Sequence record: OR352945.1
DNA: 64,000 nucleotides
Source of the DNA: Escherichia phage AV115
Reading direction: 5' to 3' (one strand)
The notes under the pieces were generated by a model. That model was not told the origin of the DNA, searched no databases, and saw only the letters and a program-made list of their open reading frames with translations. Both the position numbers and the translations under genes were made by a program. Positions 40,236 to 53,130 of this stretch are shown piece after piece. How positions within the stretch are numbered: the stretch's first letter is position 1; each line of letters begins with the position of its first letter.

Positions 40236-41369
<1,134 letters not shown>

Positions 41370-41386
41370 TCAGTTAGTTTTTTTAA

Positions 41387-41416
41387 ATTGTACCACAATC
41401 CTTGTGGTGTGTAAAC
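41387..41416 (-). promoter_or_regulatory. putative early promoter (rnlA)
   Basis: GTTTAC -35 with TACAAT 18 nt downstream, ~27 nt before rnlA ATG; overlaps denA 3' end. Confidence 0.4.
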
Positions 41417-41826
41417 TACTTTTTCTTATGTTGGATATTCCAAGGCGGGTTGAACTTTTTGATAAAAAGTGGTTCTTCAAGGTCCATTGTTGCGATGGTC
41501 ATTGAACCAAGTTCGTTGGTGACTGAAAGGTCAAAACATTGGCGGGCCCAGAATTCAACCTTTTTGCCTTGCATTAAGGCATCCAAAATCATAAGTGATT
41601 TTCTTGAATCTGAAGTCTGGTCTTTTCGATTTATGGCTGTTCGATAATAGTTAATGCGTTTCTTTAAATTCTTGGTTTTACCAATATACACAAGTTCGTC
41701 ATCTATAGCAATAGCATATATAACATTTTTCTTATTAGGGGCATCAATGGTTTTAATTGTTGCATCTTCTAATAGCTCCAATTCTATATATTTAATAAAG
41801 GAATATTCGGCGGCAATATCTTTCAT
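41416..41826 (-). CDS. denA: endonuclease II (GIY-YIG)
   Basis: 136 aa, GIY-YIG-like motif (VIYAIAIDDELVYIGKTKNL); T4 denA length and position. Confidence 0.85.
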   Translation of the reverse strand: MKDIAAEYSFIKYIELELLEDATIKTIDAPNKKNVIYAIAIDDELVYIGKTKNLKKRINYYRTAINRKDQTSDSRKSLMILDALMQGKKVEFWARQCFDLSVTNELGSMTIATMDLEEPLFIKKFNPPWNIQHKKK

Positions 41827-41834
41827 AATAAAGT

Positions 41835-41848
41835 GGGACCGAAGTCCC
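41835..41848 (-). terminator. stem-loop between nrdB and denA
   Basis: GGGAC-cgaa-GTCCC immediately upstream of denA start. Confidence 0.4.
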
Positions 41849-41852
41849 GTCC

Positions 41853-42355
41853 TTAGAAATATTTTTTGTATGAATTGATTACATTTTGGTCTACATCATT
41901 ATCAATTTGTGCGACAAGATAAGAACTGATTTCAACTTCCTGAGGAGCTGCTTGAACTAAATCAGAGTTCAGATATTCACGAATCCAAGGATAAGGATGT
42001 TTGGTCGGAGCATCAGTAATTGGACACGGCAAACCACACTGTTTCATACGAGACACAGTCAAGTAATCAACAAAAGCACACATACTCTGTGTATTGATAC
42101 CTGGACATGTACCGTCTTTAAAGAGGTGTGCAGCCCATTCCTTCTCTTGACTATTTACTTCCATAAAAATGTCAACTGCTTCTTGTTCACATTCTTTAGC
42201 AATTTGAACCCACTCATCACCATCAGTACCGGATTGAAGTTGACGGATAATGTACTGAGTACCCTTGAGATGGAGTTGTTCGTCACGAGCAATGAACTTC
42301 ATAATCTTTGCATTGCCTTCCATAATTTCCATATTCTTATGGAAATTAAATGTAC
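41853..42355 (-). CDS. nrdB: ribonucleotide reductase small subunit, exon 2
   Basis: C-terminal NrdB (MEGNAKI..., ARDE..H iron ligands); exon start inferred at 42355 to restore conserved FAC(T)F junction. Confidence 0.8.
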
Positions 42356-42947
42356 CGTTATGTTCGATTGAGCTCGCTAATTCTCAACCCGTTCTCTTAT
42401 GAACTGCTGCATATTACTATGCAGACCAGACTATATCACAATCCCGGAGGGATTCTCCCCATTTCGAGTCGCTTGACCCTACGTCCGAAGACTAGTCGTT
42501 GAACCTTGCTTTGCAATTGTCGCCGTGCCATCGTTTATATGTCGATGGTGATAAATCTTTCTTTTCACAATATGGACAATTCAATTGAATTCTATTTGGA
42601 TTTAATTTGCATCTGTCATTATGTTTTAGATAAAACCCAGGACCTTTACCAATGTGACCGCAGAAATCACATGTGATTTCTTTTTGTGCAGGATGGGTTC
42701 CGTTCTTAACCATTTCTAATGTTTTTGCTGATGTTCTTCCATCAGAATCTTTAGGTATAGGCCCGTTAGCATCCATCCAAATTTTTCTATAATTCAATTG
42801 TGCATCCTCTTAAAAGTATAATCATATTTATTTTATAATATACTAATTAAAGGTGCAAGCAAAACCTTGGCTGCTAGTTTTCCTATAAAGGACTTTCCAG
42901 CAATTAAAGGAGTTTTCGATAAACGTTACCGTTTAAAGGCGCATTTT
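42356..42947 (-). mobile_element. group I self-splicing intron in nrdB
   Basis: ~592 nt interrupting conserved NrdB sequence between YVSFA and MEGNAKI; 5' exon ends in U, intron ends in G; boundaries approximate. Confidence 0.75.
42492..42797 (-). pseudogene. I-TevIII-like homing endonuclease remnant (intron ORF)
   Basis: 101 aa ORF inside intron with TTG start; CxxC...CxxC zinc-finger-like region but no HNH catalytic motif. Confidence 0.5.
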
Positions 42948-43623
42948 ACGCAAAAGATACATAAAAACGAATAGCTTCCAATGCATTGATGACATGCAAA
43001 CAAAGATAAAGAGATTTCATTAGGTCTCGTTTAGCTTCGGTCTCTTGTTTAATAGCTCGGTTTAAACGAAGGTCGGCATCAGGAGATTCTTTAGCTTGTT
43101 CTACAAATTCTTTAGCATTTTCCCAATTACGAGTCTTGACTAGAACATCATCATAATATTTACCTATTGATTCAGCTCGTTTCATGATTGCTTCGTCTAA
43201 TACAATCTCATCAAATACTTTGGATGGATCGGTATAAAGATTTCGCATAATATGAGTATACGAACGAGAGTGAATAGTTTCACTGAATGTCCATGTTGCA
43301 ACCCACGTATCTAATGAAGGGTCGGAAAGCAGTGCCATAAGTACCGCAGATGGGGCCCTGCCTTGGATAGAATCTAATAATGATTGATACTTAAGGTTGT
43401 TTGTAAAGATGTCCTGTTGGAACTGAGGAAGCTTATTGAACTGGGCCGAATCCAGCATCAGGTTTACTTCTTCTGGTCGCCAGAAAAACGACAATTGCTT
43501 TTCAATAAGTTCTTCAAAAACTTTATGTCGCTGAATATCATAACGTGCGAGGCCAAGACCAGAACCAAAGAACATTGGTTCATTCAAAACATCGACTTGT
43601 TGTGTGTTAAAAACTGTACTCAT
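42948..43623 (-). CDS. nrdB: ribonucleotide reductase small subunit, exon 1
   Basis: N-terminal NrdB (...EAIRFYVSFA); in-frame stop lies within intron. Confidence 0.85.
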
Positions 43624-43678
43624 TATATTTTCTCACTTAGTTATTAACTCATCCATGAGTAAATTATAATCAAAAGTC

Positions 43679-45943
43679 TTAAAGCTTACAAGCAGAACAA
43701 TCTTCAGCTTTAGGTGTTTCTAATTCATAGTCATCTGTACCTGACCCATCACGAGTGTTATGATAGTAGAGGTTTTTTCCGCCAAAGTACCAGAAGTAAA
43801 GCAGATCGTCAAGCATTACTGACATTGGCACTTTACCTTTCTCAAATACTGCAGGGTCATAGTAAGTATTAGCAGAAGCAGATTGGCACACCCATTTCAA
43901 CATGATAGCAACTTGGGTCAAATAAGGTTTATTACCTTTCTTAGCAAGTTTCCACGCGTAGTCGTAAAGACTCATGTTATGTTCTATATTAGGAACAACC
44001 TGTCGGAAGTTGCCTTCTTTAGATTCTTTAATACTTACAGGTCCACGAGGTGGTTCTATACCATTTGTGCTATTTGAGACTTGACTGCTTGACTCACAAG
44101 GCATGAGTGCAGACAACGTTGAGTTACGAATTCCATGTTCTTTGAGTTCAGCTCGAAGTTCTTCCCAGTCACAGACATAGTTCGGGGCTGCGATTTGGTC
44201 AATCTTTTTATTGTACCAGTCGATAGGTAATTCGCCTCTAGACCATTTAGTGTCTGAATAATACTCACAAGGTCCTTTTTCTTTGGCGAGTTTGATTGAT
44301 GCTTTGATAAGGCCATATTGCAATCTCTCGAACAATTCATGGGTCAAATCGTTAGCGTCTTCATATGAAGCAAAGTTAGAAGCTAACCATGCAGCATAGT
44401 TCGTCACACCAACACCGAGATTTCGACGCTTTTTAGCTTTTAAAGCTTCTGGAACCGGATAATCTTGATAGTCTAACAGGTTATCAAGTGCACGTACTTG
44501 TACTTCAGCAAGTTCATTAATTTTATCTTGGTCTTGCCAATCAAATTTATCTAATACAAAAGCAGATAATGTGCATAAACCAATTTCAGCATCAGGACCA
44601 TTCACATCATTAGTTGGAATAGCGATTTCACAACATAAGTTACTCTGACGAATTGGAGCTTTTTCACGAATAAACGGAGTGTAGTTATTCGTGTTATCAA
44701 CAAACTGTGGATAAATTCGAGCAGTGCCAGAACGTTCAGTCATGAACAATTCAAAGAGTTCTAGTGCTTTGATTCTTTTCTTTCTGATTGTTGGGTCTTT
44801 TTCAGCTTTCTCATAAAGCTCACGGAATTTATCTTGATCTTCAAAGAACGAGTAGTATAGTTCACCTGACATTTCGTGAGGGCTAAATAAAGTAATATAA
44901 TCATTTTTACCAAGGCGTTCCATCATAAGGTCATTAATCTGAATTCCGTAGTCCATATGTCGAATACGGTTTTCATCCACGCCTTTGTTATTTTTCAGAA
45001 CTAATAGGTTCTCTACTTCTAAGTGCCACATCGGATAATACGCTGTAGCAGCACCACCACGAATACCACCTTGAGAACAAGATTTTACTGCAGTTTGGAA
45101 ATGTTTCCAGAATGGAATAACACCTGTATGTCGAACTTCACCCGTACCGATCTTAGAACCTTCTGCACGAAGCATACCAACGTTGATACCGATACCAGCT
45201 CGTTTAGAAATATATTCAATAATTGATGCTGAAGTTTTGTTAATAGATTTTAACGAATCACCTGCTTCAATAACTACACAACTAGAGAACTGGCGAGTTG
45301 GAGTACGAGCACCTGCCATAATTGGGGTTGGCAATGAAACTTGATGAGTAGAAACGGCATCATAAAAACGAATAATATGTTTCAAACGGTCATGAGTTTC
45401 GTCTTGGTGTAAGGCCATGCCAATAGCCATGATAGCAAACTGGGGAGTTTCATAAATCTTCCCAGTTGTTTTATCTTTAACTAGATATTTTTCTTTAAGC
45501 TGCATAGCACCAGCATAAGTCAGGTCAAAGTCTCGTTCATGTTTAATCTGTGAATCGAGATAAATGATTTCTTCTGCTGAATATTGAGACAACAGCTCAG
45601 GGTCATATTTGCCTTCATTAACACAGTAAGAAATATGGTCTATAAAAGCAGGCGGTTCAAACTGCCCATATACATCTTTACGAAGTGCAAACATTAGCCC
45701 TTTGGCGGCGACATACTGATAATCAGGTTCTTCGACAGAAATCAAGTTAGCTGCAACTTTAATACAAATCTTCTGAATATCTTTGGTGCTCATCCCGTCG
45801 ACAAGATGGGTCTTAATTTCTTCATACAATTCGTATGGGTCGATTTGTGTTCCTTCACACTGCCAAGTTAATACTTGAATAATTTTCTGTGCATCAAAAT
45901 TTTGGGATACACCTGAATTTTTCACTACTTTAAAATTATACAT
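43679..45943 (-). CDS. nrdA: ribonucleotide reductase large subunit
   Basis: 754 aa; close to T4 NrdA; C-terminal CxxC. Confidence 0.97.
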   Translation of the reverse strand: MYNFKVVKNSGVSQNFDAQKIIQVLTWQCEGTQIDPYELYEEIKTHLVDGMSTKDIQKICIKVAANLISVEEPDYQYVAAKGLMFALRKDVYGQFEPPAFIDHISYCVNEGKYDPELLSQYSAEEIIYLDSQIKHERDFDLTYAGAMQLKEKYLVKDKTTGKIYETPQFAIMAIGMALHQDETHDRLKHIIRFYDAVSTHQVSLPTPIMAGARTPTRQFSSCVVIEAGDSLKSINKTSASIIEYISKRAGIGINVGMLRAEGSKIGTGEVRHTGVIPFWKHFQTAVKSCSQGGIRGGAATAYYPMWHLEVENLLVLKNNKGVDENRIRHMDYGIQINDLMMERLGKNDYITLFSPHEMSGELYYSFFEDQDKFRELYEKAEKDPTIRKKRIKALELFELFMTERSGTARIYPQFVDNTNNYTPFIREKAPIRQSNLCCEIAIPTNDVNGPDAEIGLCTLSAFVLDKFDWQDQDKINELAEVQVRALDNLLDYQDYPVPEALKAKKRRNLGVGVTNYAAWLASNFASYEDANDLTHELFERLQYGLIKASIKLAKEKGPCEYYSDTKWSRGELPIDWYNKKIDQIAAPNYVCDWEELRAELKEHGIRNSTLSALMPCESSSQVSNSTNGIEPPRGPVSIKESKEGNFRQVVPNIEHNMSLYDYAWKLAKKGNKPYLTQVAIMLKWVCQSASANTYYDPAVFEKGKVPMSVMLDDLLYFWYFGGKNLYYHNTRDGSGTDDYELETPKAEDCSACKL

Positions 45944-46571
45944 AATAATTCCATGTTGGATAATTTGATGATTTTAGACGGCGTCTAACCGTTTGGGTGC
46001 TCATAGATAAAATTATTGACGCTTCATTTAATGTATCATATATTACGTCGTTTATAATTACTTTCTTTGCAAATGGATTCTTAGCTCCTATCATAGCGTT
46101 AGAAATAGCTTGCTTAGTTGATTCTTTTAATGGGACTCCTTTAGAAATTTTTGTTTTAATTTTTATATTGTATTGTCCGCGTTTTTTACCTAATAAAGAA
46201 TTTCGTATCTTTTCTTTAGTCTCTTCAGATTTAACATGTCCTAGTTTGGAACGAGATATTTTATCTTTTGTTTTTTGGTCTAATTTTCGCCCTTTAAGCA
46301 AATCAACCATTTTTGCTCTAGCCCATCCAAATTCTTTATTATTTCTAGAACTCATTAAATTAACCGCGGTTGCTAAACCTAAATTGTTCGGATATATTTT
46401 TAATAAAAGAAGATGAGCCAAATAATGTTCTGAATATGTTAATTTAACTAGATTGTATGACTCATTGGTGCCACCTAAACATTTTGGGATTATATGATGC
46501 CATTCACCATCGATATCTTCAAAATTTCTTTCTTTATTTACTAAGTTTTTATATATTTTTAAATAATCCAT
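45936..46571 (-). CDS. HNH homing endonuclease (MobE-like)
   Basis: HNH motif EWHHIIPKCLGG...NLV; repeated K-rich NUMOD-like segments; track start GTG 46583, ATG at 46571; 3' end overlaps nrdA start. Confidence 0.8.
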   Translation of the reverse strand: MDYLKIYKNLVNKERNFEDIDGEWHHIIPKCLGGTNESYNLVKLTYSEHYLAHLLLLKIYPNNLGLATAVNLMSSRNNKEFGWARAKMVDLLKGRKLDQKTKDKISRSKLGHVKSEETKEKIRNSLLGKKRGQYNIKIKTKISKGVPLKESTKQAISNAMIGAKNPFAKKVIINDVIYDTLNEASIILSMSTQTVRRRLKSSNYPTWNYYV

Positions 46572-46646
46572 AGTATAATCCACTTTGTAGTATCAACGGG
46601 ATAGTATTTATCCCGTTAATTTATTATACACTTTTAAACTGAAGCG

Positions 46647-46901
46647 TTAATTATCCTCAGCAATAATTTCTTCGTATTCTTTAGGTGTCAAGACCGTGAT
46701 ATTGAAATAAACCAACGGTTCTTTTTCCACACCGTAACCACCACAGAATTCACGATATTCATAAATTCGTTCATGTGAATAACAAATGAATCGTTCACCT
46801 TTAACTATGATTTCACTATTCGGTGAAGGGATATCTAGTTCGGTAGGATTTTTCATTTCAAAAATTGTGGTGCCATATGAATTAATAAAACGTAAAATCA
46901 T
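46647..46901 (-). CDS. hypothetical protein
   Basis: 84 aa; ATG 1 nt after td stop. Confidence 0.4.
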   Translation of the reverse strand: MILRFINSYGTTIFEMKNPTELDIPSPNSEIIVKGERFICYSHERIYEYREFCGGYGVEKEPLVYFNITVLTPKEYEEIIAEDN

Positions 46902-46902
46902 T

Positions 46903-47214
46903 TTATACCGCCATTTTAGCTTTGATAGCTGGATGTGATTCGTAATTTTTAAGAACGAAATCAGAATGTGTCATCGTTCCGGTAACCCAGTCCATTTGGA
47001 TTTTTGTAGGCCAATTCTCAAAATTACTAGGCCAATTAATTTCAAGAGAACATAACTCTTTAGGTTCATGACGAAGAACTTCTTTGCATTGTTCTACATG
47101 ATTGCTGTAGATATGCGTGTTGCCGCCTGAGAACACTAAATCACCTGGGATAAGGTTACACATCTTCGCTACAATATGTGTCAAGGCAGCGTACGAGGCG
47201 ATGTTGAACGGTAG
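46903..47214 (-). CDS. td: thymidylate synthase, exon 2
   Basis: C-terminal TS (LPFNIASYA...); track ATG at 47215-47217 is the last 3 nt of the intron (cataATG|CTACCG). Confidence 0.93.
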   Translation of the reverse strand, partial: LPFNIASYAALTHIVAKMCNLIPGDLVFSGGNTHIYSNHVEQCKEVLRHEPKELCSLEINWPSNFENWPTKIQMDWVTGTMTHSDFVLKNYESHPAIKAKMAV

Positions 47215-48230
47215 CATTATGTTCAGATAAGGTCGTTAATCTTATCCCGGAATTATATCCAGCTGCATGTCACCATGCAGAGCAGACTATATCTCCAACT
47301 TGTTAAAGCAAGTTGTCTATCGTTTCGAGTCACTTGACCCTACTCCCTAAAGGGATAGTCGTTAGGCATTTATGTAGAACCAATTCCACTTATCAGATTT
47401 TACACGGTAAGTAACTAATCCTGATGAAATTTCAAAATGTCTAGCCGCATCGGCTGCACATTCAAAAATAATCCCATCGCATGAAATCTTTTTGATGTTA
47501 GCTGGCTTTTTGCCTTTCATCTTTTCAGATAGTTTAGTTTTAGTTTTTTCTGAATGTTTGTGATTAAAGAACGGGTTATTTTCACCTGAACGTTTTCGGC
47601 ACTTTCCACAAGTATCGGCCGAAGATGGTATGCGAACACCGCATTTACAAAACTTGTGGTTTTCTGGATTCCATCGGCCATTTTTACTTCCGTGTTTACC
47701 ATAAAGAGCTTTCCGACCATCAGGACCAAGCTTAAGCATCTTAGCTTTAACAGTTTCAGCTCGTTTCTTAGCAATTTCTTCTTTTAATGGATGATTTGAA
47801 AGCACATCGCCAAAAGACGCATCAGCAATATTATATCCATTAATTTTAGAATTTAGCTCTTTAATCCAAAAATTTTCTCGTTCAATAATCAAATCTTTCT
47901 CATATGGAATTTCTTCCAGTATAGAGCATTCAAAAACATTACCATGTTTATTAAAAGACCTTTGAAATTTTATAGAAGAGTGAACACCGTTTTCAAGGTC
48001 TTTAAAATGTCTCTTCCATCTTTTCTCAAAATCTTTAGCACTTCCAACATACACTTTACCGTTTAAAGTGTTTTTAATCTGATAAATTCCGCTTTTCATA
48101 AACACCTCTTTTTATATAGAAGTATTTATTAAAGGGTAGTCCTACAATTTAGCACGGGATTGTCTACTAGAGAGGTCCCCCGTTTAGATAGATTACAAGT
48201 ATAAGTCACCTTATACCTAGGCCTAAATTA
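47215..48230 (-). mobile_element. group I self-splicing intron in td
   Basis: 1016 nt; 5' and 3' intron sequences as I recall the T4 td intron; exon 1 ends ...GGT. Confidence 0.93.
47362..48099 (-). CDS. I-TevI: intron-encoded GIY-YIG homing endonuclease I-TevI
   Basis: 245 aa from ATG 48099 (track GTG start at 48105); MKSGIYQIKNT...; GIY-YIG plus zinc finger. Confidence 0.97.
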   Translation of the reverse strand: MKSGIYQIKNTLNGKVYVGSAKDFEKRWKRHFKDLENGVHSSIKFQRSFNKHGNVFECSILEEIPYEKDLIIERENFWIKELNSKINGYNIADASFGDVLSNHPLKEEIAKKRAETVKAKMLKLGPDGRKALYGKHGSKNGRWNPENHKFCKCGVRIPSSADTCGKCRKRSGENNPFFNHKHSEKTKTKLSEKMKGKKPANIKKISCDGIIFECAADAARHFEISSGLVTYRVKSDKWNWFYINA

Positions 48231-48779
48231 ACCTAAGAAAACATCTACACTGCGTTGATACCATTGTAAATCAAGATGACCATTACGCACATTGAACTGA
48301 TAGAACATATGGCAAGGAGGAAGAGCCATTTGATTTATTTCAGCCGGATTCCAGGCAGAAACAATTTGACGACGATCAGTTGGTAATTTTTTAATACGGT
48401 CGATTGTTTCAACTAATTGGTCTACACCACCAAAATCACGCCATTGCTTACCATAAATAGGACCAAGTTCGCCGCTATGATATCCAAGGTCTTTTGCCTG
48501 ATTTTCATAGTTGTCGTCCCAAATAGTTTTACCTTGAATAAGACTACCATGAGTACGAATACGCAAATCATTAACATTGGTAGAACCAGACATGAACCAC
48601 AGTAACTCGGCAATACAAGCTTTCCATGCTAATTTCTTAGTTGTTACTGCAGGAAATCCTTTAGTAAGGTCCCAACGTAATTTAGTTCCGAACAGGGCAA
48701 TAGTGCCGGTACCTGTACGGTCGTCTGTTTCGTAGCCATTTTCTAAGATATCTTTAATCAGGTATTGGTATTGTTTCAT
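48231..48779 (-). CDS. td: thymidylate synthase, exon 1
   Basis: N-terminal TS with active-site region PPCH; 183 codons. Confidence 0.95.
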
Positions 48780-49363
48780 TTATATACGCTCTCAGTAATT
48801 TCGGTGAGTTCATCGATTCTGTAGTAATGAGATTCTACCATAGAACGTTGAAGCATAATATCTTGGACGAAATCTTTATCAAGTTGAACATCGGAATTAA
48901 CACGACATTTCTTAATGATTTTAGTCATCACGATTTCATCGGCATAAGGCAGTGCTTGTTTTAATAGAGCAGGGCCACCAATAATAGATACATCAACATG
49001 TTCAGTAGAAAGTTTAAACGGTACGTCAGTTGCAGGGCTAAACAGGTTAATTTCACCACCCGTTACCAAGGTAATAAATTCTGCTTGGGTGATATAGAAC
49101 CGTGCAAGTTCGTTGGTTTTGGTCCTAGGCAGTTTTCTGGCCATATCAGTGACAACCACATGAGTACGATCCTGGAGTAGACGAGGTAATGATGCAAAAG
49201 TCTTAGCACCCATAACCATTACAGTGTTTTTAGTGCGAGCAACAAAGTTACTCATATCTTGTTTGATATGCTTCCATGGAAGTCCATCACCTAATCCAAA
49301 AGCATATTCCAGTTTATCATCAACTGTTTTAGTCGGAGCGCATGCGAATACTAATTTAAGCAT
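48776..49363 (-). CDS. frd: dihydrofolate reductase
   Basis: 195 aa; stop overlaps td start; T4 Frd length and position. Confidence 0.9.
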   Translation of the reverse strand: MLKLVFACAPTKTVDDKLEYAFGLGDGLPWKHIKQDMSNFVARTKNTVMVMGAKTFASLPRLLQDRTHVVVTDMARKLPRTKTNELARFYITQAEFITLVTGGEINLFSPATDVPFKLSTEHVDVSIIGGPALLKQALPYADEIVMTKIIKKCRVNSDVQLDKDFVQDIMLQRSMVESHYYRIDELTEITESVYK

Positions 49364-49366
49364 TTT

Positions 49367-49615
49367 TTATTTCCTCAGATTTTTCTTAACAACTTTCCAA
49401 TCAGCTTTAAACGATTCAACATCAGAGTGGTGAATCCAGAATCCTGCACTTTCACCATCTTCGTAGAGTGGACATCCATCGCATTCTTCGTTCCAACCCA
49501 TTTCACGTAAAGCTTCTTCAGCTTGTTCAAGGAGTTCAGCGTCTTTACCAACGATGTTGAAGTACCATTTACCTCTAACTTCAGAATCTTTGATGCTCTG
49601 GCGTTGCAATCTCAT
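49367..49615 (-). CDS. hypothetical protein
   Basis: Track ORF starts with a non-ATG codon at 49678; first ATG (MRLQRQ...) at 49615. Confidence 0.4.
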   Translation of the reverse strand: MRLQRQSIKDSEVRGKWYFNIVGKDAELLEQAEEALREMGWNEECDGCPLYEDGESAGFWIHHSDVESFKADWKVVKKNLRK

Positions 49616-49677
49616 TTTATTCTCCTTCACTTTTGATTTGATAGGGCTACTATAACATAACCCTATCTGATTATACA

Positions 49678-50070
49678 CTACTTTTTAAAAGTTTTTTGCA
49701 AAAGTTTGATGATTTCGTCGACGTTGGTTTCATCTACGATACAATGGATTTTTGTTACACCTAAAGTTATACCTTCGTTAGTAGGTTGAGGCTTTACTAA
49801 ATCTACTTCAATAAAGTATTTGAACTCGTCAGGATAAATCTCGAAATAAGTTTCAATTTCACCACCGGCAGAACATACAGTACCGTCTTCCATAGTTACA
49901 CTTACTACGTTTGACGTATCGCTATCATAATCAGGTTCCATTCCGTTTACAACAAAACTAGGCCCATGGAGTTCAATCAATTTTAACATCTTAGCGTTAT
50001 TGTGTGGTGCTTCTTGAACAAAGTCGTCTTTAAATAAAGGGTTAATGATATAAGATTTTCCGATTTCCAT
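49678..50070 (-). CDS. hypothetical early protein
   Basis: 130 aa; SD GAGGAA and early promoter upstream. Confidence 0.5.
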   Translation of the reverse strand: MEIGKSYIINPLFKDDFVQEAPHNNAKMLKLIELHGPSFVVNGMEPDYDSDTSNVVSVTMEDGTVCSAGGEIETYFEIYPDEFKYFIEVDLVKPQPTNEGITLGVTKIHCIVDETNVDEIIKLLQKTFKK

Positions 50071-50099
50071 TTTGATTTCCTCATGTTGTTGATAGGTCT

Positions 50100-50128
50100 A
50101 TACTAACACATCCAGGTAAGAAGTAAAC
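50100..50128 (-). promoter_or_regulatory. early sigma70-type promoter
   Basis: GTTTAC-N17-TAGTATAGAC on minus strand, preceded by hairpin 50160-50177; leader CAACAACATGAGGAAA. Confidence 0.6.
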
Positions 50129-50159
50129 AACTTTTTCGGCAATTTACAGATACTCAAAA

Positions 50160-50177
50160 GGGAGACCGAAGTCTCCC
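50160..50177 (-). terminator. stem-loop GGGAGACCGAAGTCTCCC (copy 2), after gene 32
   Basis: Identical 18-nt hairpin, T-run on minus strand, followed by early promoter. Confidence 0.6.
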
Positions 50178-50183
50178 AATTTA

Positions 50184-51083
50184 TTATAGACCAGCTAACA
50201 GGTCATCGAGGTCACCATCGTCAGAAGACGAGGAACTCATGAAGTCATCTTCAGTTTTTGCAGAACCAAAGGCTTCCATGTCTTTATCAAAATCGTCAAG
50301 GTCAGAAGCAACTTTATCTGCAACAGAAGCTGCTGCGGCTGCTGCACCACCAAGAGCGGCAGTACCAAGAACTTGATTAAATTTAGTATTCAATTCTTCA
50401 AACGATTTGAACTTATCTTTAGAAGTCATTTCAGAAAGGTCGACCATTTGTTCGAACAATTCTTTCTGGAAAGATTCATCATCAATGTTTGGAATCGCAG
50501 ATTGATTCAGGAATTTAGATTCGTCGTAGTTACTGAAACCAGAAACCTGTTTAACTTTCAGCACAAAGTTAGCACCTTCCCACGGGCAAGTTACATCAAC
50601 AGGAGTTTCACCCATTTCAGTATCGACTGCAATCATTGCATTGATTTTGTCCCAAATCTTTTTACCGAAACGATATTTGAATACTTTACCTTCATTATCT
50701 GGAGCTTGAGGGTCTTTAACAACCAGAATATTAGCCCAATAAGAAGTTTTACGTTTCAGTTGAGAATATTCAGTTTTGTTGGTATTGTACAGGTCATTTT
50801 TACTAATGTACTGACATACAGGACAAGAGTCATAATCGCCGTGTGTAGATGAACAGGTTTCAATATACCATTTACCATTTTTCTTGAACCCGTGGTTAAC
50901 AAGAATTGTAAACGGAAGTGCGTCATCTGTTTTTGCCGGCAGGAAACGAATTACCGCTTGACCATTACCGGATGCATCGAGTTTCAGCTTCCATTCACCT
51001 TTATCTTCTGAAGAGAAACCTTTGTTACCATTCAGTTTAGCCATCTGAGCTGCGAGGTCTGCGGTACTTTTACGTTTAAACAT
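50184..51083 (-). CDS. 32: single-stranded DNA-binding protein
   Basis: 299 aa; near-identical to T4 gp32 (zinc site, acidic C-terminal tail). Confidence 0.97.
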
Positions 51084-51160
51084 TTTATTTGCCTTTATTT
51101 AGATTATTAATTAAATTTTACAGTTGGTTGCTACGACACTTATACCTCGTAGCTGGTATG
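51084..51160 (-). promoter_or_regulatory. gene 32 5' leader (putative autoregulatory translational operator)
   Basis: Long A/U-rich leader with repeated UUAAA/UAAA elements upstream of weak SD AAAGG. Confidence 0.45.
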
Positions 51161-51163
51161 ATT

Positions 51164-51171
51164 TATTTATA
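51164..51171 (-). promoter_or_regulatory. late promoter TATAAATA (gene 32)
   Basis: Plus TATTTATA ~80 nt upstream of gene 32 start. Confidence 0.55.
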
Positions 51172-51200
51172 AAGTAATTTTAACACACAAGAAATAAAGC

Positions 51201-51854
51201 TTAATACTTACATGATTTGATTGTTTCTATGAACAATTTCTTAGCAGCATTTCTATCGATTTGAAGTATTTTTCGATATGCCTTTAATTTGGTAGAATAA
51301 TTTTGCCAGACTAAGTTATCGGTGAGTTCGTCGTGCTTATCTATAATATTCAAAAACGAGTCCAACAATAAGAAAGTTTCAAATGAAATTATATTGCTTT
51401 GTAGCAATTTAAATATGTAGCTCGACTGAACGTTGTTATTATAATCAAATATCTCTTGAAGCGCACTAACTTCAACTTTCTTACTGAAATAGTAGATGTT
51501 ACGTACGTCTTCAGCAAACGTCTCCTTGGCTTGTTTGAGACGTCCAATATATTCCCTATAGAAAACTAATGCATCAGCGTCTGATATCTCACCAATCCAT
51601 GCGTCTTGGTTAGCAACTAAGTTGCTTATGAATATCAAGGTGAGTTCCTTCAATTTATATTTCTCTGCTAGTTTTTCAAAGAAATATTTATCTCGGCGTT
51701 TTTGATACGCATTATCCGAAACACGCATGCACCAGTTATATTTGATTACGTCATACCGACCACCAAAGTGGTTTTTGCACATCAAGTATAGTTTATATAC
51801 TGATTTTCCATTAATATAACGTTCTCCGTCAGGAGGCATGCGTATTTTAATCAT
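51201..51854 (-). CDS. 59: helicase loader
   Basis: 217 aa; close to T4 gp59. Confidence 0.95.
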   Translation of the reverse strand: MIKIRMPPDGERYINGKSVYKLYLMCKNHFGGRYDVIKYNWCMRVSDNAYQKRRDKYFFEKLAEKYKLKELTLIFISNLVANQDAWIGEISDADALVFYREYIGRLKQAKETFAEDVRNIYYFSKKVEVSALQEIFDYNNNVQSSYIFKLLQSNIISFETFLLLDSFLNIIDKHDELTDNLVWQNYSTKLKAYRKILQIDRNAAKKLFIETIKSCKY

Positions 51855-52530
51855 AGTTCCATCCAGGCCATTTTGAAGATTTAAGTCTATATGTAACTAA
51901 AGACGCAGAAATATTAAAAACATTTGAAACTTCTTTACACGAGGCGTATTTTACACCATCAATAATTATAGGTTTTTGTTTTTTAATAGTTCTTTCTTTA
52001 GAATGCGGCTTTGAATTTGCTATTCTAAGAGCTTCTTTGGTTGAATCAGGCATCGGCTTATTCGTTTTTCGCCCTTTTCGGACTTTACTCAAGGCCAATT
52101 TGTGAGCTTCAGATAGTTTCTTACCCTTATTAGGTGACGGTATTTTTCTTTCTAGTCTTGTTTTAGATACTTTAGCCTTAGTCTCTTCAGATCTAGGTTT
52201 ACCTAATTTAGAAAGTGAAATAGACCTTTTAGCTTCATCACTTTGTTTTTTACCAGGACCACCTTTACCACCGGGAACTAAGTTATAAGTATCATCTCGC
52301 AAAACAAAATCTTCATTAACCAATTCTGCTTCTTTTTTATAGGCGTCCTTGTCATTATCATATTCATAAAGAATTTCGGTATAAAAATTTTTTAGTCCAT
52401 ATTTAGCTTTGGCCGCTAATATAGCGCGGCCTGATCCAATATACCAATCTTTCTCTTTATGTTTTTTGTGTACGCCTATATAAATTTTACCATTTATTTT
52501 ATTGGTAGTTTTATACACAACGTATTTCAT
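51847..52530 (-). CDS. GIY-YIG homing endonuclease (Seg-like)
   Basis: 227 aa; VYKTTNKINGKIYIG motif, K-rich C-terminal half; ATG overlaps gene 33 stop (ATGA), 3' end overlaps gene 59 start. Confidence 0.8.
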   Translation of the reverse strand: MKYVVYKTTNKINGKIYIGVHKKHKEKDWYIGSGRAILAAKAKYGLKNFYTEILYEYDNDKDAYKKEAELVNEDFVLRDDTYNLVPGGKGGPGKKQSDEAKRSISLSKLGKPRSEETKAKVSKTRLERKIPSPNKGKKLSEAHKLALSKVRKGRKTNKPMPDSTKEALRIANSKPHSKERTIKKQKPIIIDGVKYASCKEVSNVFNISASLVTYRLKSSKWPGWNYD

Positions 52531-52865
52531 AATAAGAAATCTAGCGTATTAGTTTTTTCACCACGAGCAACTGATGGGCGAAGCATGTTTTCGTCAATTG
52601 CTTCGCTTGTAATTTTTTCAACAATTCCTGTAGGAATAAATTTAGCAAATTGTGTTTCTGGAATAGAATTTTCTTCCAAGAAAGCAGTTGTTGCTTCTAA
52701 ATAAGACATACCAAATTGTTCAACCATGGATTCGATAATGAATCCGTTTTCTTGACGGTCAAGCAATTTAGCGATATCATCTTTATCGTGTTTTACTGCT
52801 AATTCTTGTTCAGATAAACCGGCCTCATCAACCGGTTTAATATCACTTAGTGAAAACTGTGTCAT
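52527..52865 (-). CDS. 33: late transcription accessory protein
   Basis: 112 aa; T4 gp33 length and position. Confidence 0.9.
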   Translation of the reverse strand: MTQFSLSDIKPVDEAGLSEQELAVKHDKDDIAKLLDRQENGFIIESMVEQFGMSYLEATTAFLEENSIPETQFAKFIPTGIVEKITSEAIDENMLRPSVARGEKTNTLDFLL

Positions 52866-53130
52866 AAAGCTCGACTACCTCTTCGTTTTCAGCTTCAAAT
52901 TGGTCACGAGCGTCTTTATGATAAAGAGCTAACAAACGATTAAACATTTTTCCATCGACACCAAGCTCTTCTTTAGCACGAGTACGAATGTCTTTAATCA
53001 GTTCATTATAACCAGAAATTTTAAGTTTGTTATCGGAAGCTTCCTTGACTAGTTTAGCCAGTTCTTCACCATGCACATCTTGATTAAATTCAACTGCTTC
53101 TTTCTTAGCCATGTTTACCTCAGAATTCAT
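52843..53130 (-). CDS. dsbA: double-stranded DNA-binding protein
   Basis: 95 aa ORF (possibly 89 aa from second Met at ~53112); position between rnh and gene 33. Confidence 0.8.
   Translation of the reverse strand: MNSEVNMAKKEAVEFNQDVHGEELAKLVKEASDNKLKISGYNELIKDIRTRAKEELGVDGKMFNRLLALYHKDARDQFEAENEEVVELYDTVFTK

Follow-up and report, generated by a model that had tools for sequence, protein, structure and literature searches.

The window analysed here is a 64,000-nucleotide stretch of DNA from Escherichia phage AV115 (OR352945.1), an RB69-like coliphage (Mosigvirus) in which a gene for an HNH protein is located immediately upstream of nrdA. The features of the locus, all on the minus strand, are as follows:

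43624..43678, minus strand: nrdA-nrdB spacer, the empty mobE site (55 nt, without an ORF).
43679..45943, minus strand: nrdA (754 aa; ATG at 45943).
45914..45943, minus strand: recoded 5' end of nrdA, provided by the cassette (10 codons, MYNFKVVKNS instead of MQVTKSS).
45914..46594, minus strand: HNH cassette (681 nt), found in HNH-positive alleles only.
45936..46571, minus strand: HNH homing endonuclease ORF (211 aa from the ATG at 46571).
45939..46094, minus strand: C-terminal I-TevI/Seg-type helix-turn-helix DNA-binding domain (approximately aa 160-211).
46092..46277, minus strand: lysine-rich NUMOD3-type helical repeats (approximately aa 99-160; Pfam NUMOD3 and AF2 model).
46296..46571, minus strand: N-terminal HNH (beta-beta-alpha-metal) nuclease domain (approximately aa 1-92).
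46595..46617, minus strand: hairpin with a 10-bp stem abutting the left cassette boundary, conserved and common to HNH-positive and empty alleles.
46623..46650, minus strand: promoter-like site (TTAACG, 16 nt, TATAAT) from a consensus scan, present in empty alleles too.
46647..46901, minus strand: nrdA.2-like gene, the upstream neighbour (DUF5496, Pfam E 7.7e-12; phrog_2458, E 5.6e-35).

The HNH gene is free-standing, i.e., outside any intron or intein, and resides between nrdA.2 and nrdA. Read from an upstream GTG at 46583, the ORF would be longer (45936..46583, minus strand, 215 aa), but translation likely starts at the ATG at 46571, as in the GenBank annotation, where the ORF is already named "homing endonuclease". 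The stop of the ORF overlaps the nrdA ATG by 8 nt (ATGTATAA), exactly as described in an earlier note on this DNA, and NrdA encoded by the empty alleles has 751 aa. A plus-strand ORF (45997..46416, 139 aa) was set aside as an antisense shadow of the HNH ORF, because all homology, like every neighbouring gene, is on the minus strand. The same note had described the nrdA-nrdB junction as endonuclease-free and placed the HNH gene mobE of T4 at that very position. Both statements hold: the 55-nt gap, also present in phage AV110, contains no ORF, and true mobE genes are present in the nrdA-nrdB spacer of T4, ECO4 and Mosigvirus LF82-33. The view that the nucleotide-metabolism block is rich in mobile nucleases, with an nrdB intron remnant and td/I-TevI, also agrees with the td-nrdB block, as the intervening sequences are 94% (nrdB, defective I-TevIII) and 90% (td, I-TevI) identical to the corresponding T4 introns. 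Rfam searches at gathering thresholds revealed no group I intron in region 41000-53000, and the support for the two introns is therefore their 90-94% identity to those of T4.

The ORF product of approximately 211 aa has the HNH motif that had been noticed earlier (EWHHIIPKCLGG, residues 23-34) and matches phrog_655 ("homing endonuclease") with an E value of 7e-46. The lysine-rich NUMOD-like repeats, also noticed from the letters of the DNA, were recovered as Pfam NUMOD3 (PF07460), which passes the gathering threshold (25.4 bits vs. cut-off 20.4). Two more Pfam families, HNH_5 (E 0.037) and I-TevI_DNA-bd (PF20987; 24.9 bits vs. cut-off 27), are by themselves under the cut-off. At the sequence level the matches to NUMOD3 and phrog_655 are far above chance. 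Residues H25, H26, N40, H49 and H53 do not vary among 56-58 homologues, and the catalytic residues are all kept. In the AF2 model (mean pLDDT 88) the N-terminal domain has the beta-beta-alpha-metal fold, and the repeat region comprises helices 99-108, 116-126, 136-143 and 150-160. A PDB sequence search with the protein gave nothing significant, the best relevant match being the DNA-binding domain of I-TevI (E 0.28). Given such weak matches, folds were compared instead; structures 1i3j and 1t2t were the best matches to the C-terminal domain, a helix-turn-helix homologous to the I-TevI DNA-binding domain (PF20987). The protein was shown to be a modular chimera of an HNH nuclease, NUMOD3 repeats and an I-TevI/Seg-type helix-turn-helix, and the gene is a predicted HNH homing endonuclease of the T-even Mob type, a familiar phage class. 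The ORF is intact in all five alleles examined, with a dN/dS of approximately 0.22 (binomial p 0.014), which shows apparent purifying selection and points to a retained function.

The boundaries of the cassette, mapped with BLASTN and MAFFT in five HNH-positive and six HNH-negative Mosigvirus loci, are the same in all five HNH-positive ones. Where the cassette stands, the empty allele has 56 nt that include the ribosome-binding site and first seven codons of nrdA, and the recoded NrdA N-terminus provided by the cassette is of the same length as that of T4 (MQLINVIKSS). In tblastn searches the 22-aa recoded N-terminus matched only the 11 HNH-positive records. A degenerate DNA pattern for MYNFKVVKNSG had no match in viral_contigs, the HNH protein had no relative in IMG/VR, and no donor lineage for the cassette or the recoded nrdA start was found in IMG/VR, viral_contigs, 5.8 billion proteins or by tblastn. 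The GC percentage of the cassette is 28.5%, compared to 37.9% for the window, and falls within the lowest 0.2% of 681-nt windows.

The cassette is found in 11 records of the phage collection, at the same site in all 11 and with at least 98.7% identity, which corresponds to about one in 14 related phages (11 of approximately 150 Mosigvirus records). The site is empty in 116 records, RB69 among them, and all 116 have one common junction with a proper nrdA ribosome-binding site. The presence/absence polymorphism on which the earlier note made its reading depend is therefore real. In roughly 25 records, a number estimated from the rows of a tblastn search with the NrdA N-terminus, nrdA.1 occupies the site as a third allele. 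Among the HNH-positive phages, segregating sites amount to 1.8% in the cassette and 5.6% in the flanks (Fisher p 7e-6), i.e., the cassette has about one third of the flank diversity. No SNP is fixed between HNH-positive and HNH-negative alleles from -316 to +2313 nt, and therefore the replaced segment is the sole sequence separating them. Presence of the cassette is independent of that of the td intron, located approximately 0.6 kb upstream, of the nrdB intron, approximately 3 kb downstream, and of mobE. A literature search yielded no description of this HNH element between nrdA.2 and nrdA.

The promoter-like site upstream of the cassette probably drives both the HNH gene and nrdA. The sequence CGCTTCA, 11 nt before its -10 element, resembles a MotA box and may act as one, and the 121-nt region with the hairpin has a fold z-score of -3.75. 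No exact late promoter sequence TATAAATA was found close to the HNH gene; GATAAATA, located in the hairpin loop, has one mismatch and was not counted as a late promoter. Nor did the scan detect a terminator within the gene on its coding strand. Transcription of the cassette, which would have no promoter of its own, would depend on the resident promoter-like site and on read-through in the region upstream of nrdA, with the HNH gene as first cistron of the nrdA mRNA. In the empty allele nrdA has a strong ribosome-binding site, GAGGA; in the HNH-positive allele its place is taken by a weak GGA inside the HNH gene. Because of this change and the 8-nt start/stop overlap, translation of nrdA is probably coupled in part to that of the HNH gene.

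As a mobile element the cassette is real, though of an ordinary type. We consider it likely, with a probability of roughly three in four, that it is a free-standing homing endonuclease cassette of the Mob kind which a minority of RB69-like phages (Mosigvirus) carry as an insertion in the nrdA 5' leader. When HNH-positive and HNH-less phages infect the same cell, the enzyme would nick or cut the HNH-less genome within or beside the 56-nt segment, where the comparison of alleles places the putative target site, and the cassette would then be copied into that genome by recombinational repair off the HNH-positive one. An HNH-positive phage would itself be immune, as it lacks the 56-nt segment and has recoded initial nrdA codons. 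Indirect signs consistent with homing are the low diversity of the cassette, its mosaic flanks and its low GC. A stronger version is tentative and rather doubtful: that removal of the native ribosome-binding site and first codons, with the recoded start overlapping the HNH stop, has made nrdA translation dependent on that of the endonuclease gene and loss of the cassette difficult, the same recoding destroying the recognition site and rendering the carrier immune. If true, this would be a homing endonuclease that targets the translation-initiation region of an RNR gene and has an addiction-like coupling to it.

Several other explanations have to be weighed against homing. A single old insertion, after which ordinary homologous recombination took place among Mosigvirus phages, could likewise account for the low diversity of the cassette and the mosaic flanks. 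The gene may also be stagnant, the protein no longer cutting and the cassette hitch-hiking with the help of nrdA expression that relies on it. This is unlikely, even if many T-even endonuclease genes are defunct, such as I-TevIII in T4 (PMC2790892), the cassette is restricted to 11 of approximately 150 Mosigvirus records, and the nrdA ribosome-binding site and start are within the cassette, so that a clean deletion would harm nrdA expression. The preserved catalytic residues and the intact ORF with its low dN/dS argue against inactivity, and low cassette diversity on diverged backgrounds suggests recent spread. Still less probable is an HNH gene ancestral to Mosigvirus and deleted in most lineages, in which case the polymorphism would reflect loss and not homing. 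The presence/absence pattern by itself gives no direction, and the junction is variable anyway, as the third allele demonstrates. However, a cassette approximately three times less diverse than its flanks, its GC percentage, extreme for the genome, and a foreign-looking nrdA start absent from every HNH-negative phage all speak against loss, as do the single junction with a proper ribosome-binding site in 116 of 116 empty sites and the outgroup T4, which has nrdA.1 and no HNH gene at the corresponding position.

The earlier note had called the gene MobE-like. This is justified as far as HNH/Mob relatedness is concerned, since BLASTP searches against MobE and other Mob proteins did reveal HNH-family homology, with 33% identity to T4 MobE (E 7e-27), but not in the sense of a relocated MobE. 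The alignments to T4 and LF82-33 MobE end at residue 167 and cover only the HNH domain and the NUMOD3-type repeats, and that to ECO4 MobE extends to residue 209 at 29% identity. The C-terminal region of MobE (…YPPCPHCGKKVNKGNALRWHYDKCK), a CPHC...C zinc-finger-like module, is absent from the HNH protein. Mob-type genes at other sites are equally similar (KpV477 at gp53/gp4, 38%; PST inside uvsW, 33%); the closest protein relatives, those of P0003, KpV477 and PST, all occupy such other genomic sites (gp53/gp4, inside uvsW) and are uninformative on the origin of the insertion in the nrdA leader. A T4 MobE orthologue that kept its specificity and moved out of the nrdA-nrdB spacer to the opposite end of nrdA is very improbable: the E value, the shared gene neighbourhood and a mobE site that is empty in all HNH-positive genomes examined would fit, but the identity of 33-37% is limited to residues 1-167, no intermediate of 50-90% identity exists among 5.8 billion proteins, and DNA specificity should differ with the C-terminal module. 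An orthologue of MobE is ruled out by the insertion site upstream of nrdA and the different C-terminus. The HNH gene is a lineage separate from MobE with its own insertion site, and the protein presumably has a target of its own.

The HNH gene and T4 mobE nevertheless share many features as free-standing homing endonuclease genes. Both proteins have an HNH catalytic core and NUMOD3-type repeats, and both genes are free-standing and apparently promoterless, overlap tightly with an RNR gene, are located at the 5' side of a conserved gene that is the likely target, and have a fixed site at which close relatives either carry or lack them. T4 MobE, which is promoterless and inherited at high frequency (Wilson and Edgell, 2009, PMC2790892), nicks nrdB, the gene that follows its insertion site, within the 5' region at nt 122-126 (PMC2790892), and seven free-standing T4 endonucleases are promoterless cassettes (PMC2988022). 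The two differ in site (nrdA.2/nrdA vs. nrdA/nrdB), in the C-terminal module (I-TevI/Seg-type helix-turn-helix vs. CPHC...C) and in position, as the HNH gene precedes the gene it overlaps and provides the nrdA start, whereas mobE follows nrdA; the scan result for internal terminators on the coding strand is a further difference. I-HmuI, the HNH intron endonuclease of Bacillus phage SPO1 (PDB 1u3e), is also among the closest known systems. With the GIY-YIG enzymes I-TevI and Seg of T-even phages the protein has in common the C-terminal helix-turn-helix (PF20987) and the NUMOD3 linkers, and it is 37% identical over approximately 110 residues to a Seg-like ORF of the same genome. The zinc finger of I-TevI was not detected in it by Pfam search. 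Since its catalytic domain is HNH instead of GIY-YIG, the protein is a domain-shuffled relative of I-TevI/Seg.

The HNH cassette does not alter current understanding; it is a further documented example of how RNR genes of T-even phages attract selfish nucleases. It is relevant to HNH nickase-driven homing, the mechanism of which was considered open in a 2010 review (PMC2988022), to swaps of DNA-binding modules between endonucleases of the HNH and GIY-YIG types, and to insertions that capture the translation start of a host gene. One phage collection contains both AV116 (HNH-positive) and AV110 (empty), whose alleles differ only in the 681-nt vs. 56-nt segment, a pair which constitutes a clean natural test system.

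A free-standing gene for a 211-aa homing endonuclease, hereafter the HNH ORF, lies directly upstream of nrdA. Escherichia phage AV116 (OR352946.1; Straboviridae, Mosigvirus, the RB69-like genus) is 100% identical to the 2.5-kb stretch around this locus, and window coordinates equal those of the AV116 record plus 3. All genes of this region are on the minus strand, in the order frd, td exon 1, I-TevI, td exon 2, an nrdA.2-like gene (DUF5496), the HNH ORF, nrdA, nrdB exon 1, truncated I-TevIII, nrdB exon 2, a denA-like endonuclease gene and rnlA. The features are:

42324..42945, minus strand: nrdB intervening sequence, matching the nrdB intron of T4 (defective I-TevIII) at 94% identity
42492..42797, minus strand: truncated I-TevIII-like ORF in the nrdB intron, 101 aa
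45914..46594, minus strand: HNH cassette, 681 nt in place of 56 nt of the empty allele
45936..46583, minus strand: HNH ORF, 215 aa counted from GTG
46650..46623, minus strand: promoter-like site, TTAACG and TATAAT spaced by 16 nt, plus a sequence resembling a MotA box (CGCTTCA) 11 nt ahead of the -10

The HNH ORF most likely starts at the ATG at 46571 (211 aa), as also annotated in GenBank. The factual points of the earlier note were all correct: the HNH motif EWHHIIPKCLGG occupies residues 23-34, the HNH stop overlaps the nrdA ATG (45943) by 8 nt (ATGTATAA), nrdA and nrdB are separated by 55 nt free of ORFs (43624..43678), and an HNH gene, mobE, occupies this spacer in T4. The analysis placed mobE there in ECO4 and Mosigvirus LF82-33 as well. 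The td/I-TevI and nrdB introns that the earlier note had recognized were likewise recovered, the td intervening sequence being 90% identical to the T4 td intron (I-TevI). No group I intron was reported by Rfam at gathering thresholds in 41000..53000, despite the clear interruption of td and nrdB by T4-like introns, probably because the loops of these introns carry large inserted ORFs.

The HNH protein matches phrog_655 'homing endonuclease' in PHROGs (E 7e-46). In Pfam, NUMOD3 exceeds its cut-off (25.4 vs 20.4 bits), I-TevI_DNA-bd falls slightly under it (24.9 vs 27 bits) and HNH_5 is a weak match (E 0.037). The catalytic set H25, H26, N40, H49 and H53 is invariant in alignments with 55-57 homologues, and in the AlphaFold2 model (mean pLDDT 88) the HNH region contains two strands and a helix, the lysine-rich middle has four helices, and the C-terminus folds into a small beta/helix-turn-helix domain. 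The protein is therefore a chimera of HNH, NUMOD3 and I-TevI-type helix-turn-helix modules. That HNH and GIY-YIG endonucleases share modules through NUMOD-type domains is well established. The last ~110 residues are 37% identical (E 5e-14) to a Seg-like GIY-YIG ORF in the window (51847..52530, minus strand) and 30% identical to I-TevI. The Seg-like ORF is intact (227 aa; SegE_GIY-YIG, NUMOD3, I-TevI_DNA-bd) and overlaps the gene 59 homologue at the latter's start; in the GenBank record of AV116 only the C-terminal 138 codons of the Seg-like ORF are annotated, as a 'hypothetical protein'.

The earlier note had called the gene MobE-like. Homology within the HNH family was found by BLASTP, T4 MobE being 33% identical over residues 1-167 (E 7e-27), LF82-33 MobE and a KpV477 gene at the gp53/gp4 junction 37-38%, and a PST gene inside uvsW 33%. 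Orthology to MobE was rejected: the alignments to T4 and LF82-33 MobE both end at residue 167, and while MobE of T4, ECO4 and LF82-33 has a C-terminal cysteine-rich …CPHCGKKVNKGNALRWHYDKCK module, the HNH protein has a Seg/I-TevI-like C-terminus instead. It belongs to the Mob kind, and the name MobE-like is right at the family level only and otherwise too specific. Among 5.8 billion clustered proteins its only 90% cluster is P0001, whose 10 members share the genomic site and beyond which relatives reach at most ~47% identity over partial length.

Cassette boundaries are identical across all five HNH+ (AV116, SSE1, WFL6982, a20, ECO111 5-P) and six HNH- Mosigvirus loci compared (AV110, 348Ecol098PP, APCEc01, LF82-4, phi25-307, LF82-33). 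The right boundary lies within nrdA, where the empty allele reads …GAGGAATAT ATG CAA GTA ACT AAG AGC AGT GGT… (MQVTKSSG) and the HNH+ allele …GGAATTATT ATG TAT AAT TTT AAA GTA GTG AAA AAT TCA GGT… (MYNFKVVKNSG). Because of this swap NrdA has 754 aa in the window vs 751 aa in empty alleles. The recoded N-terminus equals T4's MQLINVIKSS in length and was not found in any phage record outside the 11 HNH+ ones; we infer that the nrdA start of an unsampled donor came in along with the cassette. The left boundary adjoins exactly a conserved hairpin (46595..46617, minus strand; 10-bp stem) just downstream of the promoter-like site. The hairpin loop (GATAAATA) differs by one mismatch from the late-promoter motif of T4. 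The hairpin was rejected as a canonical terminator for these genes because the coding strand has no U-tract after it.

The cassette (at least 98.7% nucleotide identity) was found in 11 of 50,697 phage records, always at the same site, and the empty junction in 116, RB69 among them, a presence/absence polymorphism. A third, T4-like allele carries nrdA.1 (DUF4326) in roughly 25 records, estimated from the rows listed in the NrdA N-terminus search. In Mosigvirus mar005P1 and SA79RD (comparison loci L016 and L017, 1567..1872 in each, equivalent to about 45944..46594 of the window) it comes without the hairpin or promoter segment. The nrdA.2/nrdA junction is therefore a three-state variable site in Mosigvirus. 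Among six phages, cassette presence is independent of both introns and mobE:

Mobile elements in six phages (HNH cassette; td intron; nrdB intron; mobE)
SSE1: present; absent; absent; absent
WFL6982: present; absent; present (810-nt intron ORF); absent
a20: present; present; present (810-nt intron ORF); absent
AV116: present; present; present (truncated intron ORF); absent
AV110: absent; present; absent; absent
LF82-33: absent; absent; absent; present

The intron ORF is thus longer in HNH+ a20 and WFL6982. In T4, MobE acts in trans to mobilise the defunct nrdB intron (PMC2790892); AV116 has the intron without mobE.

The five HNH+ phages diverge pairwise by 0.8% on average in the cassette vs 2.4-3.7% in the flanks, with 12/681 vs 143/2543 segregating sites (Fisher p 7e-6). 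Cassette GC is 28.5% (window 37.9%), within the lowest 0.2% of 681-nt windows. Between -316 and +2313 nt, no fixed SNP separates the HNH+ from the HNH- alleles, and mosaicism in the flanks extends as far as the junctions. These patterns fit a young element that has spread over diverged backgrounds through homing in which co-conversion tracts are short; a single insertion followed by frequent recombination would yield the identical pattern and fits equally well. All five alleles keep the ORF intact, and the changes in it, 6 synonymous and 5 non-synonymous, give a dN/dS of about 0.22 (binomial p 0.014), which speaks for a functional protein.

T4 MobE has no promoter of its own, makes a nick in the 5' part of the gene that adjoins the site where it is inserted (nrdB nt 122-126 of T2), and depends on its HNH motif for its high-frequency inheritance (PMC2790892). 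For the HNH gene, the analysis established domain architecture, catalytic residues, insertion anatomy and polymorphism; by analogy with MobE, and from the sequence, a scheme of transcription, target, repair and nrdA coupling can be proposed for homing. The resident promoter-like site would drive cassette transcription, supplemented by td read-through, with the HNH gene as first cistron on the nrdA message. Since the replaced 56 nt are the sole sequence separating HNH+ from HNH- alleles, one would expect the recognition site, or failing that whatever underlies self-immunity, to overlap codons 1-7 of nrdA and its ribosome-binding site. Repair off an HNH+ genome would then copy the cassette into the cut genome. 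The nrdA ribosome-binding site is GAGGA in the empty allele vs a weak GGA inside the HNH ORF in HNH+ which, together with the stop/start overlap, makes it plausible that nrdA translation is coupled to HNH translation. If so, loss of the cassette would be penalised too.

T-even phages are known to carry free-standing endonuclease genes of the HNH (mob) and GIY-YIG (seg) families in great number, RNR genes being favoured targets (PMC2988022; PMC3045599), and the HNH gene itself is unsurprising to a specialist. No paper describing it was found in a literature search. GenBank names it 'homing endonuclease', 'HNH homing endonuclease' or, wrongly, 'group I intron endonuclease'; the last, used in WFL6982 and WFK (MK373774.1, MK373775.1; 4001..4636 of locus L007), is a mislabel because the site has no intron. 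With its recoded nrdA start, three alleles at one site and matched HNH+/HNH- isolates available, the locus is a convenient, though not pressing, experimental system.
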